A stretch of 64,000 nucleotides of DNA from Dehalococcoidia bacterium (GCA_963555985.3 OY820591.1:2176001-2240000); one strand, 5' to 3'. Positions 7,945 through 58,572 are shown, counted from the stretch's first letter. Notes: generated from the letters alone by a model not told the origin. Numbers and translations: made by a program.

Positions 7945-9831
7945 CTAGCCCACTGCAACATCCCACCGATCCGCACAGTTCTGGACGACCAGATCGACAT
8001 CCTCGGCGAGAATCACACCCTCCGCCGCAAGACTCTCCGCATCCCCTCTGACCCGATCGAGATACGACGCTTTGTCCCCATACCGCGCCAGAATCTCCTC
8101 CCGACTGAACCACTGAGTCAGACCCACAAAGTGACTCGTCAAATCCTCCCCACCCGTCTCCGGGTGACGCGGATTCCAACCGGTATGCAGACCGAGCGGC
8201 TGCGTCAGATCCGGCAATCTGAGACCTGCAATCTCATTCCCATGCTCGTCGACCGCCGACACATAGCCCTGGTACTCCGCCCCCTCAACCGGCGGCAGCG
8301 CAGACCAATCCACCGTCCGCACCCGCGACAGACGCTCCGCATCCGGCGTCGTCACCCGATCACTCAGTTGCAACAGCACCTCTCCCCGCTTGGCGGCGGT
8401 GCCCTTAGCCAGACTCGGCACACTCGTCGGCGGCGGCTCCGACTCCCCAGCCGCCCAGCGATCCAGATTCACCAGCGCCGCCCGCATCAGCGGCGACTGA
8501 TCCACAGCGTTATGCCGGTACATGCTGCGATCGGCGGTCAAGTAGAAACTGTCAATCGGCTCGGCCTGACCAGCCCCGTGCTGCGTACACGCCAACAGAT
8601 AATGCCGCGACTGCGGATGCTCCGGAACATCCTCGCCCGTGGCCGGATCAATGTCGATCAGCGACGCATCCCCGCGCCAGAACTCCCAACTCGTATTCGT
8701 CTTCACGATCTTCGGCGTCGCGCCCTGTTCGTCCGAGCGCCCCAGTAACCCGTCGCACGCACCGGTCAACGGATCATCGCGCTCGACATCGGCGAAGGGA
8801 AACTCATGGATCGGCCCGGCCAGGAACAGCTGCGACGGCTGACCGTAGCGCCGGTTGAACTCGCCCCGAATGCCGCCCGCGACGTGGATGTGCATCCCGT
8901 CAAAGGCGCGCTGCGAGGGAGCGTCCGGATCACGGTTCAGGCCCAGATACAACAGGTGGCGAAGGAAGCGCCCGCTCTGCGAAATCCCGAAGCCATGCAC
9001 GCGCTCATAAGAACGCTGCCAGCCGCGCAGAAACAGCGCCGCATCGCGGAACGCGAGCAGACCCGTTCCGACAACCGGCGAGCGGTCGGTCGGATAGACG
9101 ACCTCGTAGATCTTGCCCGGCGTAAACCCGCCCTCAAGCCAAAGGTCGCGCGCACTCGGGACCACGCCCTCCTCGGTCTGCCGCGCAAACCGCCAACGCT
9201 CGCGTGAAATCTCGCGCGGCTCATCGTCCTCAAAGTCGAGCTCATAGAGACGCGAGCGCCCGTCCTCGTGCTCCGAGACCGGATAACCCGGCTGCCCCAG
9301 GTGCTCGATCGGCATCGAGGCCAACGGCTCGCTGGGACGCAAGTCGGTAATCGCCTCGCCCGACATCGGCTTGTCGTCCGCGCCCAGCGCTTCGGGAGCC
9401 TCAAAGTCCAGCAAGGTCGGAGCGTCAGGCGTGTTCCACTGCCAAGCGACCGAAGCCACGCTGAACCCATGCCGAAACAGGAAGCCGTCGCCGGGATGCA
9501 GCGGATCGGTGAGCGAGAACTCAGGCGGCGTCCGATTCAGCGAACCAGGCAGCAAACTCCGTCCCCGATTGGGCACATCGATCACGAGCGCCCCGTTCCC
9601 GGCCGACGCATCCGTCGGCCGCATCAGCACCAGATCGCCGCTAAAGCGAACGCAACCGTCCGATCCGCGCGGCGCGCACTCGAGGTCGGTGATCCGCTGA
9701 TGGTCTTCCAGCGCCGGATTGACCGCGTAGTGCAGCCGCGCCCGGATCAGCTCAAACGCCCCAGCGTCGCCGAACGCTTGCCCGTCGGCGTACGGTCCCT
9801 GCTGCACAATTTCGATTCGTTCGACGGACAT
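7945..9831 (-). CDS. Alpha/beta hydrolase domain protein (Abhydrolase_10-like)
   Basis: DVPNRG, GISQSGRFLR nucleophile motif, VDEHGNEIAGLRLP. Confidence 0.85.
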   Translation of the reverse strand: MSVERIEIVQQGPYADGQAFGDAGAFELIRARLHYAVNPALEDHQRITDLECAPRGSDGCVRFSGDLVLMRPTDASAGNGALVIDVPNRGRSLLPGSLNRTPPEFSLTDPLHPGDGFLFRHGFSVASVAWQWNTPDAPTLLDFEAPEALGADDKPMSGEAITDLRPSEPLASMPIEHLGQPGYPVSEHEDGRSRLYELDFEDDEPREISRERWRFARQTEEGVVPSARDLWLEGGFTPGKIYEVVYPTDRSPVVGTGLLAFRDAALFLRGWQRSYERVHGFGISQSGRFLRHLLYLGLNRDPDAPSQRAFDGMHIHVAGGIRGEFNRRYGQPSQLFLAGPIHEFPFADVERDDPLTGACDGLLGRSDEQGATPKIVKTNTSWEFWRGDASLIDIDPATGEDVPEHPQSRHYLLACTQHGAGQAEPIDSFYLTADRSMYRHNAVDQSPLMRAALVNLDRWAAGESEPPPTSVPSLAKGTAAKRGEVLLQLSDRVTTPDAERLSRVRTVDWSALPPVEGAEYQGYVSAVDEHGNEIAGLRLPDLTQPLGLHTGWNPRHPETGGEDLTSHFVGLTQWFSREEILARYGDKASYLDRVRGDAESLAAEGVILAEDVDLVVQNCADRWDVAVG

Positions 9832-9914
9832 TGGCGACCTCGCTTCCAGTCCCACCTAGACTAAGGCCTCCCCAGAACCCCTTTCTGATCACCCCTCTGC
9901 TCCCCTCTCCCTGA

Positions 9915-10059
9915 GGAGACCTGCGCGTAATCCCGGATTCCGTCATTCCAGGCTTGACCTGGAATCTCGTCCGGAATTGCGGGCTCTCTGGTCGGAGCGA
10001 GATTCCAGCGTTCGCTGGAATGACGAGAGCAGCGGGAATGCCAATTTGCAAAGGCCTCC
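9915..10059. mobile_element. ~145-bp MITE with IS5/IS1106-like ends and a GTCATTCC palindromic core
   Basis: Ends GGAGACCTGCGCGTAA / TTTGCAAAGGCCTCC; ~100-bp core nearly identical to 13950-14050. Confidence 0.7.
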
Positions 10060-10110
10060 GCAGGCGGGGAGTGAGGGCGAGGGGCCCTCCTGTTACCCAG
10101 ATAACACTTT

Positions 10111-10143
10111 CGTACTACTCATATATTCGGAATATATATACTA
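10111..10143 (+). promoter_or_regulatory. AT-rich operator/promoter of the HTH gene (degenerate SOS-box-like)
   Basis: Perfect palindrome ATATATTC-G-GAATATAT (10121-10137) abutting TATACT (10137-10142) in a high-GC background. Confidence 0.6.
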
Positions 10144-10187
10144 TGGCAAGAATCGCGTCACAGCTCAACACAGGAGAGCGAGCAAGC

Positions 10188-11123
10188 ATGACCTTTCCCC
10201 GCTACCCCAACCCCGCCCGCCGCGCCAAACTGCTCCAAGCCCACCAACTCCGGCAACAAGGACTCACCCTCCGACAGATCGCCCAGGAGATGGGCTGCGC
10301 ACACTCCACCGTCGCCGCCTACCTCAAAGACTTCGAACTCTTCCGCGCCGACTTGATCCAGGAACTCGCCGCCGACCAACTCGTCGTCCACCTGCTCCAA
10401 CTCGCCGATCTCAACGACGAACACCACGACCGCCGCCGCGCCGACATCCGCGAATTGCGCCTGCTGCTCACGGCCGTGCCCCACATCCGCCGCGACGAGT
10501 CCGAACGCACCCAAGAACTCGTCCAGGGCGGCGTCAGCGTCGACCGCTACGGTCAACGCTACCCCAGGCCCGAACGCTTCTTCCCCCCCACACCCGAAGA
10601 GATCGAGCAGATCAACCAACCCCACGCCGAACCGAACGCCGACCTCGACCCCGACCAAGCCCTCGTCTGCACCCCCGAACCCGCTCGAACAGCACCGAAC
10701 AGCACCGAACAAGAACTTTCCGCTTCCCCTCTCCCCCCCTTGCAGGGGAGATGTCCCGTAGAGCCTGCCCCCGCGCACGCGGGGGACAGAGGGGGGGCGC
10801 CGCCCGCCAAACACGCCGAACACACCGACGAACCCGCCCGAACAAAATCGAACAAGCCCGAACAAGAAACCGCCCAAACCCCAGCCCAGGACGGCGAATC
10901 GGCCGAAACCGGCCAGATTTCCCCCGACCCCGCCCTCCAACAGGCCATCGACGACATCGACCGCCGGCTCAAAGACATCCTCAGCGACCGAGACTGGCTC
11001 AACGACTACCCGTCCCGCAACCCCCGGCACCCCGAACGCCGGAAAGCCCTGCGCCTCGTCGAGCAAAAGCAAGCCCTGCTCGCCCAACTCCACGCGGAAC
11101 CGGAGGCCCCCGACGCAGCCTGA
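10188..11123 (+). CDS. Uncharacterised N-terminal HTH protein with embedded DNA repeat arrays
   Basis: RQQGLTLRQIAQEMGCAHSTVAAYL HTH; AGGAG RBS. Confidence 0.8.
   Translation: MTFPRYPNPARRAKLLQAHQLRQQGLTLRQIAQEMGCAHSTVAAYLKDFELFRADLIQELAADQLVVHLLQLADLNDEHHDRRRADIRELRLLLTAVPHIRRDESERTQELVQGGVSVDRYGQRYPRPERFFPPTPEEIEQINQPHAEPNADLDPDQALVCTPEPARTAPNSTEQELSASPLPPLQGRCPVEPAPAHAGDRGGAPPAKHAEHTDEPARTKSNKPEQETAQTPAQDGESAETGQISPDPALQQAIDDIDRRLKDILSDRDWLNDYPSRNPRHPERRKALRLVEQKQALLAQLHAEPEAPDAA
10676..10863 (+). repeat. Two arrays of 4x CGAAC at exact 10-bp spacing inside the HTH gene
   Basis: CGAAC ends at 10680/10690/10700/10710 and 10833/10843/10853/10863. Confidence 0.85.
10726..10797. repeat. REP-like palindrome inserted in frame in the HTH gene
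   Basis: CCCCT..GGGGAGATGTCCCGTAG..GGGACAGAGGGGG matches the reverse complement of intergenic 39138-39187. Confidence 0.75.
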
Positions 11124-11153
11124 CCGACGCCAACCCCGCCAGCCGCCGCTCAG

Positions 11154-11315
11154 GGAGACCCTTGCGAAAGTCGCCGGTCCGCGGATCACGTCATTCCCGC
11201 GAACGCGGGAATCCATGCAGCGATCGAGTGGGACGGGAATTCCCGCGTTCGCAGACCGTTGCAACCCTCTATATCCGTCATTCCCGCGCAGCCTGCCCCT
11301 GCGCAGGCAGGGGGG
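11154..11315. repeat. Cluster of GTCATTCCCGCG REP-like repeats and MITE-end fragments
   Basis: GGAGACCCTTGCGAAA, CGTCATTCCCGCGAACGCGGGAATCC, GACCGTTGCAA, GTCATTCCCGCGCAGCCTGCCCCTGCG. Confidence 0.75.
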
Positions 11316-11319
11316 CTCC

Positions 11320-12453
11320 TCAGTCCAAGCCCCAGATCGCCTGGGCGTTCCCGCCCACGATCTTCTGCGCGTCCTCGATCGAGTCGGTCGCGTCGAACAC
11401 GTCCCAGAGGCTTTGCTGCGCGTAGCCGACCGCGCTTTCGGGGTGCGGGTAGTCGCTGCCCCAGAGCACCTTGTCGACGCCGATCAGGTCGAGCTGGCGC
11501 AGGCCGGACGGATCCTCGATGAAGGTCGCGTAGCAGTTCTCGAACCAGTAGTGGCTGGGCTTGTTCGCCAGCTTCGGCGTCATCTCGCTCTCGAACGAGG
11601 CGTACACCTTGTCGCAATCGAACAGGCAGCTCGGCACCCAGGAAATACCGCCCTCGGTGAAGACCACCTTGAGGCCGGGGTTGCGCTCAAAAATGCCCGC
11701 GAAGGCCAGCAGCGCGAACAGCCGCCGGAACGGCTGGAACGCCACCACGATCGTCGTCGCCAGCCCGCCCTGACCGCGAGCGTCGAACGTCTCGCCCACG
11801 TGGAAGCTGAGCGGCAGGCCCGACTCGCCGATCGCCTTCCACATCGGCTCCAGCGCGCGCGCGTTGTAGTACACCTTCGCGTGCGGCGGCGGCAGCGAGG
11901 GCATCAGCACGCCCTTGAACCCCAGCGCCTTAATCTTCTGCAGCTCGTCCTCGGTCCGCTCGGGGTCCCAGTAGTTGAGCAGAGCGAGGCCGTGCAGCTT
12001 GTCGGGGTACTCCGCGCAAAACTCGGCCAGCATCTCGTTGTAGGCGTCCATGCAGGCCTGGATGTAGTCGAAATCCTGGTTCCGAATCACACCCAACATC
12101 CGCTGCGGGAACAGGATCTCCTGATCCACGCCCTCGCGCGAGATCTCCTCCACACGAATGCCCGCGTCCCACATCCCCGCCCGGCCCTCGATCATCTCCG
12201 AAGGCATTGCCGGGTTGTCGGTCGTCTGACCGTCGATCTCCATGTGGAAGCCGCGCTCGTTGAACACCCCGCGCGGCGCCCGGTCGCGGTACTTGGCCGG
12301 CATTCGATCGACGAATGCGCCCGTCTCCAGCCAGTGGCTGTCGGCCGAGATCACGGTCGTGCCCGCAGGCAGCGGTCGTTGCGTCGCCGGCAATTCGCGC
12401 TGGTTCGGCCAAGGCAGAGGATCGGTGCTGATGCTGCTCAGAGTCGTGGTCAT
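11320..12453 (-). CDS. Amidohydrolase_2 family protein
   Basis: ISADSH, SFHVG, EGGISW, WGSDYPHPES. Confidence 0.9.
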   Translation of the reverse strand: MTTTLSSISTDPLPWPNQRELPATQRPLPAGTTVISADSHWLETGAFVDRMPAKYRDRAPRGVFNERGFHMEIDGQTTDNPAMPSEMIEGRAGMWDAGIRVEEISREGVDQEILFPQRMLGVIRNQDFDYIQACMDAYNEMLAEFCAEYPDKLHGLALLNYWDPERTEDELQKIKALGFKGVLMPSLPPPHAKVYYNARALEPMWKAIGESGLPLSFHVGETFDARGQGGLATTIVVAFQPFRRLFALLAFAGIFERNPGLKVVFTEGGISWVPSCLFDCDKVYASFESEMTPKLANKPSHYWFENCYATFIEDPSGLRQLDLIGVDKVLWGSDYPHPESAVGYAQQSLWDVFDATDSIEDAQKIVGGNAQAIWGLD

Positions 12454-31146: not shown

Positions 31147-31531
31147 CTAGGGCCTGTTTACACAACCACGAGCGCGGTCGGCCCGCACGAGCGCTGGTCT
31201 CGAGGCTGAGCCTCGGCGCTCCCGTCCCCGCCCTCCGCAACCGAGCCGAAACCGGGTATGCTCAGAACATATACGCGCACGAATCCAATGGGAGACCGCT
31301 GTGTCCCACAAACGACTCGCTCCAAACCTGAACAGTGCTGGACATGCCCGGATTCTCCTGGAAAAAATCTGCCCGAATCGAGATCAATCCGGACAGATCT
31401 GGACAAATCTGGACAAATCCAGACCCTCGAACGCACGATCCTCAGCGCTCGCCAGGAGATCCGCTCAATTCCTCCGAAATTCTCCCGCCAAACAGCGCCG
31501 ACGCACTTCGCGCAGTCTGAACAGGTCCTAG
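31147..31531 (+). mobile_element. Non-autonomous element with IS5-like TIRs, SOS-box-like promoter and 10-bp phased repeats (copy A)
   Basis: CTAGGGCCTGTTTACAC / GTCTGAACAGGTCCTAG (14/17 inverted match); TATGCT-C-AGAACATATACG; (TCTGGACAAA)n. Confidence 0.75.
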
Positions 31532-37220: not shown

Positions 37221-37437
37221 CCAGGAGGAGGGGCAGGGCGAGCGAGAAACCACTGCCCCTGAGTTCGTCGGGCGGTCGTTCCCGACAGGACTCGCATGTT
37301 GGCGGCCGCTGGCTGCCGAGGCAGGGGTGTGGGTTCGTTGCGCGTCGTGACGGGTTAACCGCAAAGAGCCAACCGCTGCATCCACCATGAGTGGCGGACA
37401 GACTCGGCTGGCTCCCGACGAAGCGCGGACCTCCCTC
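37221..37437 (-). ncRNA. Candidate structured RNA or long expression platform downstream of the c-di-AMP aptamer
   Basis: Several stems (AGGGGCAG/CTGCCCCT, TTCGTCGGG/CCCGACGAA, GTTGGC/GCCAAC); no credible ORF. Confidence 0.45.
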
Positions 37438-37576
37438 GGTCGCCTACGGGGTTAGCTGACGGGTTCGGCGCGAGAGAGTGCGCCTGGGAGCCAAAGCTCC
37501 GTTCACCCCAAGTGATGGGTCCCCCGTTTCCCGCAGTCGAAGCGCTCGCGCTGCCTCGCTGGGGAATTCGGCCGTC
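37438..37576 (-). promoter_or_regulatory. c-di-AMP (ydaO/yuaA) riboswitch aptamer
   Basis: GCCGAATTC..GGAAACGGGGGACCCA..TTGGGGTGAA..CCGAACCCGTCAGCTAACCCCGTAGGC consensus blocks in order. Confidence 0.93.
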
Positions 37577-37593
37577 TATTCAGTTGTGCGTTC

Positions 37594-42341: not shown

Positions 42342-42469
42342 CGCAGTTCCTTCCCAGGTTCTGGCAGTGATTGCTCCAGCCGCAGGGTTGGGCGGCTGCT
42401 GCGGCAAATGGTAGGTGAGCGTCTGGCAGGAGACAACCGAATCGGCCCGTCAACGAGGTCGCCAGCGGG

Positions 42470-42740
42470 GGATTGCAGGCGATCGGTTGATTTTTCAAGC
42501 GGAGCGGGGCCGTTCGCGGTCGGGGGCAGCGAATGGTGAGCGAGGTAGTCCGAGATAGTCCAGATTTGTCCAGGTTTATGCGGATTCTGCTGAATTTCGG
42601 GCGGAAATGACAGTGAGCATGCGGCTTTGTCCAAGCGTGTCCAGGTTGTGGGTGAGTAGCCATTTCGGGCACCGCGTGACGGCTGGGACGATGCGGGATG
42701 AAGCGATCGTATACGGACAGATGTACTGTGATGGGTCTAG
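42470..42740 (-). other. SOS-box plus 10-bp phased repeat element (copy C, no TIRs seen)
   Basis: AGTACATCTGTCCG (42714-42727) 2 nt before TACGAT; CCTGGACAAA-TCTGGACTAT-CTCGGACTAC arrays. Confidence 0.6.
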
Positions 42741-42773
42741 ATTGAGGCGGGTGTTGCGGAGGCGACAATCCGC

Positions 42774-58209: not shown

Positions 58210-58572
58210 CTAGAGCTTGTTCACGCAAAACGAAGGTGTCGCCTGCGCAACAGTGAAGCCTCGGCCAAGCGCTTGACTGCCGGCGTTCATCGCAGTACGT
58301 TTGTACTTATCATCTCCGAGCACGAAGCGAGCCTCGTCATGCCCGCCCCCAGCCTTCCCCAACCTGGAGCCCCGGCCTGTTCCAAAGTGACCGGGAACTT
58401 TCCGAGACCTACCCAGACTGACCAACGCCAACCAATCCTAACCATCCTGAACGCACGATCTCCCGTAAAACACTGGGCATCGCATGTTTTCGAGCCGGAA
58501 CAAAAAAATTCTCCACAGCACTACCGCGCGAACACCCGCAACGCCCGCGCAAGTAGTGTGAACAGGCCCTGG
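58210..58572 (+). mobile_element. Non-autonomous element with IS5-like TIRs, SOS box and 10-bp phased repeats (copy B)
   Basis: CTAGAGCTTGTTCACGC / GTGTGAACAGGCCCTGG; AGTACGTTTGTACT; GAACGCACGATC identical to copy A. Confidence 0.8.
58273..58313 (+). promoter_or_regulatory. Sigma70 promoter overlapped by a LexA-type box
   Basis: TTGACT-N17-TACGTT; palindrome AGTAC-GTTT-GTACT (58294-58307); second -10 TATCAT. Confidence 0.65.

Follow-up and report, generated by a model that had tools for sequence, protein, structure and literature searches.

A 64,000-nt stretch of the chromosome of a Dehalococcoidia bacterium (GCA_963555985.3 OY820591.1:2176001-2240000, here called the window) carries a gene for a helix-turn-helix (HTH) protein, and the 3' half of this gene holds two arrays of the pentamer CGAAC, repeated at exactly 10-bp steps. 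The window lies at positions 2176001-2240000 of contig C1, a 3.1-Mb chromosomal contig, in an assembly of 3.33 Mb and 65% G+C that we label G000. The open reading frame (ORF) is a real gene and one member of a large orphan family of HTH proteins. The original prediction of an orphan HTH ORF with phased CGAAC arrays is borne out by the repeat coordinates and by a match to Pfam HTH_23 (residues 27-65, E 1.5e-6), HTH being all that Pfam detects. Judging from sequence, we consider the chances evenly balanced that the HTH protein occupies the arrays at one unit per helical turn and that gene and arrays together make up a repeat system which propagates itself, in loose analogy to REPIN-RAYT. The gene and the repeats within it are placed as follows.

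10188-11123, + strand: HTH-family gene (P0002), 311 amino acids, ribosome-binding site AGGAGA at 10172-10177
10676-10710, + strand: array 1, four CGAAC at exact 10-bp spacing, in the region coding for a disordered linker
10817-10863, + strand: array 2, one CGAAC at 10817 and then four CGAAC, encoding the conserved peptide R-T-x-x-N-x-x-E

The units of array 1 start at 10676, 10686, 10696 and 10706, and those of array 2 at 10829, 10839, 10849 and 10859, with the extra CGAAC standing 12 bp earlier. The claim of four exactly spaced units, twice, is therefore correct to the nucleotide, and the three-unit pattern, matched 4 times in the window, was found in 0 of 100 dinucleotide-preserving shuffles.

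The original prediction had proposed a genome-wide scan for such arrays, and this reveals a strong enrichment. The genome holds 44 arrays of at least three exact CGAAC at 10-nt spacing. Identical 5-mer triples number 308 at spacing 10, as against 21, 12, 11, 13 and 10 at spacings 7, 8, 11, 13 and 14; at spacings divisible by three the counts are 165-219, as expected of coding sequence. Merged into loci, period 10 accounts for 93, and the same five control spacings for 10, 7, 9, 12 and 7. The program TRF returns 280 rows for period 10 versus 140 for period 11. Further cores at this period are TGGACA, TGAAAC, ATCCA and CGTCC, and within the repeat units the core is fixed and the 5-nt spacers vary. 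Sorted with a crude, purpose-made gene caller, the arrays fall into four classes.

Intergenic, co-oriented with the downstream gene: 29 of 44 CGAAC arrays; 63 of all 93 period-10 loci
Intergenic, opposite orientation: 4 of 44; 12 of 93
Genic, sense: 10 of 44; 15 of 93
Genic, antisense: 1 of 44 (probably a miscall on a duplicate contig); 3 of 93

Nine of the 10 sense genic CGAAC arrays lie in HTH paralogs, a family estimated at less than 1% of the genome. Most of the arrays lie in transcribed leaders or intercistronic spacers. Intergenic arrays often fill the whole spacer between a stop codon and the next ribosome-binding site, as at rpsK-rpsD, before asd and at sdhA-sdhB, and the genes downstream have unrelated functions and share no theme. 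At G000:C1:2154381-2154405 a three-unit CGAAC array stands in frame in an unrelated aminopeptidase-like ORF, the sole A/C-rich genic array found outside the HTH family. Some small contigs (C2, C5, C6, C8) duplicate stretches of C1 (C2:791 = C1:3068861, C6:1752 = C1:1912751, C5:7822 = C1:1363181); some copy counts are therefore inflated, in keeping with a contamination figure of 7.5%.

The HTH family is itself repetitive. In G000, a hidden Markov model built on the N-terminal domain picks up 21 ORFs, including a few that sit on duplicate contigs; searching with the single protein gives 20. Two gene copies share 1056 bp at 99.8% identity, the shared unit being this gene alone between hairpins resembling repetitive extragenic palindromes (REP-like hairpins). 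Among 349 database candidates, 82 are relatives at E <= 0.001; the named ones are 'hypothetical' or 'HTH domain' proteins of Chloroflexi/Chloroflexota metagenome-assembled genomes, and homologs in Chloroflexota genomes of this kind are 64-100% identical over residues 16-140. The family is limited to a few genera of uncultured marine Dehalococcoidia. We examined 103 members in more than 20 genomes, made up of 43 and a further 60 hand-picked places, and in 75 of the 103 a period-10 array follows the HTH within 1400 nt. Of 89 arrays, 82 start inside the ORF; the median start lies 575 nt behind the HTH. In one clade (C1:2982881, L081, L094) the ORF stops ahead of the array and the array is nevertheless kept, so the array goes with the gene and not with a need for the linker peptide. 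When superclades are assigned by a purpose-made motif rule, arrays are present in 68 of 81 members of the array-bearing superclade versus 7 of 22 members of the second.

The repeat core varies by clade and may be CGAAC, TGGAC or TGAAAC. A quick maximum-likelihood tree of 43 N-terminal domains contains a CGAAC clade (13 rows) and a TGGAC clade (8 rows), each with support of 97 in the Shimodaira-Hasegawa-like approximate likelihood-ratio test (SH-aLRT). Core labels change 8 times on this tree versus a mean of 21.5 in shuffles, a contrast that near-copies inflate. TGGAC arrays occur in 3 of 41 genomes (7 in G000, 24 in G013, 9 in G018), and among the loci fetched, TGGAC-clade genes occur only in the same three. 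The whole 10-mer also has a dialect by genome, with spacers AAAAC/AAAAT favoured in G018, GGAAT/AGAAT in G000 and AACCC in G007.

The 10-nt repeat had been read as a feature of the nucleic acid and not as a peptide repeat, and this holds: it also turns up in non-coding spacers, follows the stop codon in one clade and, where in frame, is written with rare codons. Among 42 aligned homologs, the linker residue T219 never varies and R218, N222 and E225 hardly do, and no other linker position is invariant or nearly so; these four residues are the in-frame reading of three CGAAC units. The pair R-T is written CGA-ACA, CGA being 9% of Arg codons and ACA 6% of Thr codons. Judged by this spelling of a conserved dipeptide with rare codons, the arrays are under nucleotide-level constraint. 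The region of the gene is poor enough in T to leave a second frame open too, so the coding status of the gene's middle rests on homologs and not on the open frame.

Arrays and family also go together across genomes. The comparison covers 65 genomes of the taxonomic family, with the HTH domain called at E <= 1e-6 and related genomes treated as independent. The three-unit CGAAC match is present in 38 of the 65 and the HTH domain in 29. In the genus labelled g7, all 17 genomes with at least 10 array matches hold the HTH family (2-16 hits), as do 3 of the 20 genomes with 0-6 matches, one of these with a stop codon; the Spearman correlation is 0.84, uncorrected for kinship. Seven other genera (18 genomes) have 0 family hits and at most 1 array match each. 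The idea of a master gene with dispersed cognate sites survives to this extent, as arrays are enriched, homologs carry them, and arrays and family co-occur; on these points the refutation checks proposed with the original prediction turn out in its favour. The sites themselves turn over, as three orthologous spacers illustrate.

sdhA-sdhB spacer: 6 CGAAC units in G000, about 8 CGAAC units in G018, a TGGAC array in G013
rpsK-rpsD spacer: array in G000, none in G018, G013 or the others searched
Spacer before asd: array in G000, none in G018, G013 or the others searched

In the array-less genomes G024 and G021, one (C/G)GAACAGGCG precedes the ATG of the sdhA-sdhB spacer, and in G007 the spacer is short and has no array. 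Since orthologous spacers differ between species, the arrays are recent additions and not conserved operators.

Structure prediction gives two folded parts.

10212-10625, + strand: predicted N-terminal DNA-binding module, with HTH, helical hairpin, beta-hairpin and short helix
10929-11093, + strand: C-terminal helical hairpin, residues 248-302, predicted local distance difference test (pLDDT) about 90

In an AlphaFold2 (AF2) model made from a 42-sequence alignment, the HTH spans residues 9-45 (helices 9-23, 28-35 and from 39 onward) with pLDDT 80-97. Next come a long helical hairpin reaching residue 112, then a small beta-hairpin and one short helix, and a separate model of the N-terminal 150 residues agrees. 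Residues 148-243 are disordered. The C-terminal hairpin is conserved in orthologs in frame with the HTH, with matches reaching query residues 314-320 in one open frame. Foldseek comparison of both AF2 models with PDB and BFVD gave no match at E <= 0.001. VIA-align matches the HTH alone, to extracytoplasmic function (ECF) sigma region 4, GerE/NarL, DeoR, DnaA domain IV, ParB/KorB and one small terminase (Z 5.2-8.6). The HTH falls in the fold class of sigma-70 region 4 and LuxR-GerE (Z 5.3-8.6 over 48-64 residues), these being middling scores for a common fold. ECF sigma factors recognise AAC-containing -35 elements. The nearest named clusters of the ESM Atlas are Terminase_5 and Sigma70_r4_2 (score 0.90, 152 shared features), which we take only as a lead.

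The repeat statistics, the gene family with its arrays, the clade-specific cores, the co-occurrence across genomes and the turnover at orthologous spacers are observed; from them we infer that the protein may bind DNA at the arrays, that it may polymerise along one helical face, and how the arrays may spread. The two CGAAC blocks of the window gene would be local copies of the genome-wide class of 10-bp-phased direct repeats. The HTH domain would read the 5-6-bp core, and successive monomers would sit on successive helical turns, lined up along a single DNA face. Behind the HTH-coding part, the array would serve the protein as a 'home' site through which it regulates its own gene or acts in cis, and scattered arrays with the same core would be further sites. 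Because the family and the arrays come and go together and show rapid turnover, the system looks self-propagating and largely selfish, not a fixed regulon. Several observations weigh against this reading. In the second superclade, 15 of 22 members have no array. In the genus labelled g8 (n = 9), array counts do not follow family totals (rho -0.15), family hits there being mostly of the array-less superclade, and the genomes G047, G064 and G066 have 5-6 array matches and no family hit. Clade-specific cores and co-occurrence could arise from co-inheritance alone, as the genomes are non-independent. Searches of Pfam, PHROGs and NCBIfam gave nothing beyond generic HTH matches and no catalytic domain to move DNA. 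A residue-to-base code, in which a recognition-helix Arg at C-A-R-S-T goes with a GG core, failed on 60 more loci, where TGGAC-clade members with H, P or C have the same core. Finally, the co-orientation with transcription of 29 of the 33 intergenic CGAAC arrays and the scarcity of T in the units (at most 3% at 8 of 10 positions, leaving no start or stop codon in any frame) are as compatible with constraint on RNA.

These last two points lead to the idea of a hitch-hiking RNA or spacer repeat, translation-neutral, weakly structured and A/C-rich, which would grow by slippage in leaders and intercistronic spacers, be tolerated in the disordered linker of a fast-duplicating gene family and remain unbound by the HTH protein. 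We hold this, the main rival, to be possible though rather unlikely. It would account for arrays that fill stop-to-ribosome-binding-site spacers, for the unrelated functions downstream and for the in-frame array in an unrelated gene at C1:2154381, and at sdhA-sdhB the single (C/G)GAACAGGCG seed of array-less relatives, set against 6-8 units in G000 and G018, looks like expansion in place. It leaves unexplained why 9 of 10 genic CGAAC arrays are in one family, why the position behind the HTH is kept over deep divergence and even outside the ORF, why the core is held as the 5-nt spacers vary, why array-rich genomes are the family-holding ones, and why a spacer whose local seed is of the GAAC type holds a TGGAC array in G013. 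An ordinary transcription-factor family, each paralog a repressor or roadblock with a regulon of operator arrays and an autoregulatory site in its own gene, appears improbable to us. The HTH is of sigma-4/LuxR type, direct repeats one turn apart are those of OmpR/PhoB- and SARP-type regulators (SARP, Streptomyces antibiotic regulatory protein), and the arrays of the gene-less cassettes described below sit between promoter and start codon. Yet arrays are not kept at orthologous sites (rpsK-rpsD and asd in G000 only, sdhA-sdhB with cores that differ by species), the downstream genes are without a common theme, the family is missing from congeneric species, and the 99.8%-identical 1056-bp copies indicate recent duplication.

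The original prediction leaned towards a damage-inducible protein, similar to the small terminase TerS or to a centromere-binding protein, whose pac- or centromere-like sites mark DNA for packaging or partition; we now regard this as very improbable. The order of HTH, long helical hairpin, small beta-hairpin and flexible tail does recall small terminases, and two intragenic repeat blocks recall the P1 pac site. Weak HTH matches point the same way: the Pfam family Terminase_5 reaches 16.5 bits where the cut-off is 20.3, phrog_309 matches at E 8.4e-5 over 43 residues of the HTH alone, the small terminase of G20C (4xvn_A) can be aligned over the HTH alone (Z 6.7 and 5.4 over 47-48 residues), and the Atlas has its Terminase_5 clusters. 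These matches are generic to the HTH and under family thresholds, and an NCBIfam search listed no terminase family. The neighbours include no large terminase, capsid or other adjoining phage gene, the duplicated unit is the HTH gene alone, each genome has about 20 copies of the gene, the gene lacks a LexA-type box, and the arrays sit in operon spacers, oriented by transcription; the terminase/pac reading is thus not supported. Nor is the partition reading, with no partner nucleoside triphosphatase (NTPase) gene beside the HTH gene among the window neighbours checked, the genome as a whole not having been searched for NTPases. Returning to binding of the arrays by the HTH protein, a bolder form of that proposal would be a new kind of intragenomic replicator, a protein-iteron symbiont comparable to REPIN-RAYT but without a transposase. 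Catalytically inert HTH proteins would carry arrays in their own genes, the arrays would spread as matching dialects (CGAAC, TGGAC, TGAAAC) into the spacers of host operons, and filaments on one DNA face would serve as tunable roadblocks or recombination seeds. We offer this form tentatively, as a less probable extension.

A link to the SOS response had also been proposed for the HTH gene and is not supported. The LexA box of Dehalococcoides is of the GAAC-N4-GTTC type, and LexA and RecA genes are present in the genome; none of the 22 perfect boxes of this type in the genome lies within 9850-11350, and the arrays are direct repeats. Two perfect boxes, at G000:C1:1211615 and 1586246, lie about 70-110 nt upstream of near-duplicate, array-less HTH-family members. 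The proposed operator of the window gene is the following element.

10121-10142, + strand: AT-rich palindrome ATATATTC-G-GAATATAT abutting TATACT, a possible -10 element

The arms, at 10121-10128 and 10130-10137, are 1 nt apart, and TATACT occupies 10137-10142, so the palindrome and its position are as described. No other copy of the gene has it: when 9500-11700 was compared with the genome by BLAST, nothing else matched over about 10075-10170, the paralogs have other upstream sequence without it, and it lies outside the 1056-bp duplicated unit. Being absent from the paralogs, it does not support an SOS role. A strict sigma-70 promoter scan of 9850-11350 found no promoter.

A similar layout without the HTH had been reported at 31147, 42470 and 58210. 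The recurrence is real, with arrays that are TGGAC-type or degenerate and not CGAAC. These gene-less cassettes have the order promoter, ATG, arrays, hairpin and A/T tract.

31386-31419, + strand: TGGAC-type period-10 array in a promoter-leader cassette that precedes a dehydrogenase-like gene
42541-42577, - strand: TGGAC-type period-10 array of a second cassette
58273-58500, + strand: third cassette, with promoter-like TTGACT-17-TACGTT, hairpin, and A-tract followed by TTCTCC
10913-10925, + strand: A/T tract motif CCAGATTTCCCCC of the HTH gene, about 50 bp behind array 2

The third cassette has the palindrome GTACGTTTGTAC at 58295-58306 and degenerate 10-nt units at about 58411-58450. Over 31270-31480, 42430-42760 (- strand) and 58230-58560, the cassettes share a conserved ATG-CCC-GC... 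start and a frame open through the arrays. The tract CCAGATTTCCCCC, only about 12 bp long, corresponds by eye to the AAAAATTCTCC-like tract of the cassettes, and BLAST tied the cassette tail only to another, array-less paralog. An origin of the cassettes from HTH genes by deletion is no more than possible, as BLAST finds resemblance only in the arrays and the tail motif. A promoter-like TTGACN-17-TACNTT, its -10 overlapping GTAC-N4-GTAC, occurs at 58273-58306 of the window and at G000:C1:965622, 502912, 2088065, 2328366 and 1892331. The corresponding position of the recA promoter, some 200 nt before G000:C1:1783952, is taken by GTAC-N4-GTTC, which resembles the cassette site. By this resemblance, GTAC-N4-GTAC/GTTC may be the LexA operator of the lineage, and an SOS link is possible for cassettes with GTAC-N4-GTAC. 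As a genome-wide enriched box the site was tried and rejected, with 19 matches versus 16, 7, 16, 6 and 6 at other spacings and no overall enrichment.

The remaining features of the locus concern its start codon and its surroundings. The ORF ends at 11123 and has in-frame ATGs at 10143 and 10188. Its start is probably the ATG at 10188 (311 amino acids), because the database protein has 311 residues, homology to paralogs runs from about 10170, and AGGAGA stands 11 nt before 10188. Gene callers agree with the paralogs on this start, and the earlier placement at 10143, which would add 15 residues, is accordingly not favoured. The gene is solitary; its flanking genes, hydrolase-like and amidohydrolase-like ORFs, are on the opposite strand. 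Hairpins surround and interrupt it.

9900-10070, no strand assigned: REP-like hairpin repeats upstream of the gene unit, multi-copy in the genome
10712-10810, + strand: REP-like hairpin inserted in frame between array 1 and array 2, with arms at 10733-10740/10790-10797 and 10768-10775/10778-10785
11140-11300, no strand assigned: REP-like hairpins downstream of the gene, arms 11193-11212 and 11199-11252

The upstream repeats have many copies genome-wide at 75-96% identity, and inverted repeats lie at 9945-9965, 9959-10008 and 10002-10021. Close paralogs are without the insertion and have only about 35 bp between the arrays; other homologs have similar inserts. REP-like hairpins, including those at all three places above, form at least two families in the genome with tens of copies each. 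One family reads ...GTCATTCC...GGAATGAC..., and the other is a C-run/G-run hairpin that is inserted in frame in the linker of the window gene and several homologs, with peptides of the form PLSPP...GGRC... Rfam at gathering thresholds recognises no family at the arrays or cassettes; elsewhere it finds two tRNAs and a cyclic di-AMP riboswitch of the ydaO/yuaA type (window 37426-37583, - strand, 88.9 bits against a gathering score of 38).

Literature listings and abstracts gave no description of these arrays or of the HTH family. If binding is true, nature would offer a set of paralogous DNA readers with matched 10-bp dialects, spreading within genomes and placing arrays inside essential operons for ribosomal protein, succinate dehydrogenase and amino-acid biosynthesis. 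It would be a second and mechanistically different long-lived partnership of repeat and protein beside REPIN-RAYT, a compact recognition code in which one HTH fold serves several cores, and a handle on how, in uncultured sponge-type or marine Chloroflexota, operon spacers evolve. Should the protein not bind, these arrays of exact 10-nt units, T-free and oriented by transcription, are still an undescribed class of interspersed repeat, one that inflates 'hypothetical protein' families and can mislead gene callers.

Known systems share parts of this arrangement. OmpR/PhoB, SARPs, ParR-parC and TubR-tubC bind direct repeats about one helical turn apart. Like theirs, the sites here are head-to-tail with a 10-12-bp period, sometimes in two blocks; unlike theirs, the sites are scattered over the chromosome, and Pfam found no receiver, bacterial transcriptional activation (BTA), ribbon-helix-helix (RHH) or winged-helix domain. 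ParR-parC and TubR-tubC stand beside a partition NTPase on a plasmid or phage, whereas none neighbours the gene in the window and the locus is chromosomal. In phage lambda, the iterons of ori-lambda lie inside the O gene, with units of 18-22 bp. The resemblance to lambda O and iterons lies in the N-terminal DNA-binding domain, the site repeats in the linker-coding part and the A/T-richer tract that follows; the difference lies in the 10-bp units, the dozens of arrays in operon spacers and the roughly 20 paralogs in one chromosome. Pfam and NCBIfam searches detected no Rep or initiator family in the HTH protein, and the chromosome has 44 CGAAC arrays and 93 period-10 loci, with an A/T tract of only about 12 bp, versus one iteron set and an unwinding element per replicon. 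The mycobacterial interspersed repetitive units (MIRU) and the BOX elements of pneumococci are interspersed repeats between cistrons, with units of 40-100 nt. The arrays resemble them in lying within operons and leaders, in one orientation to transcription, open to translation, with copies that come and go among relatives. They differ from MIRU and BOX in the 10-nt unit with its 5-nt conserved core and in being tied to a protein family that carries the repeats in its own genes.

The closest comparison is the REPIN-RAYT system, in which REP doublets are associated with a REP-associated tyrosine transposase (PMC3116915, PMC3337134, bioRxiv 10.1101/2021.07.10.451892). By comparison, the protein here is a plain HTH protein without the HUH/Y1 (IS200/IS605-like) transposase domain, and is multi-copy, not single-copy. 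Its repeat is a direct array phased at 10 bp where REPIN-RAYT has a pair of palindromes, and it lies inside or just behind the coding sequence instead of flanking it. The two systems have in common a short intergenic repeat in tens of copies, a cognate gene physically tied to it, and a repeat type matched to the protein clade. In both, the repeats are abundant only where the gene is present, and the pairing of a dispersed repeat with a linked gene is found here across genomes.

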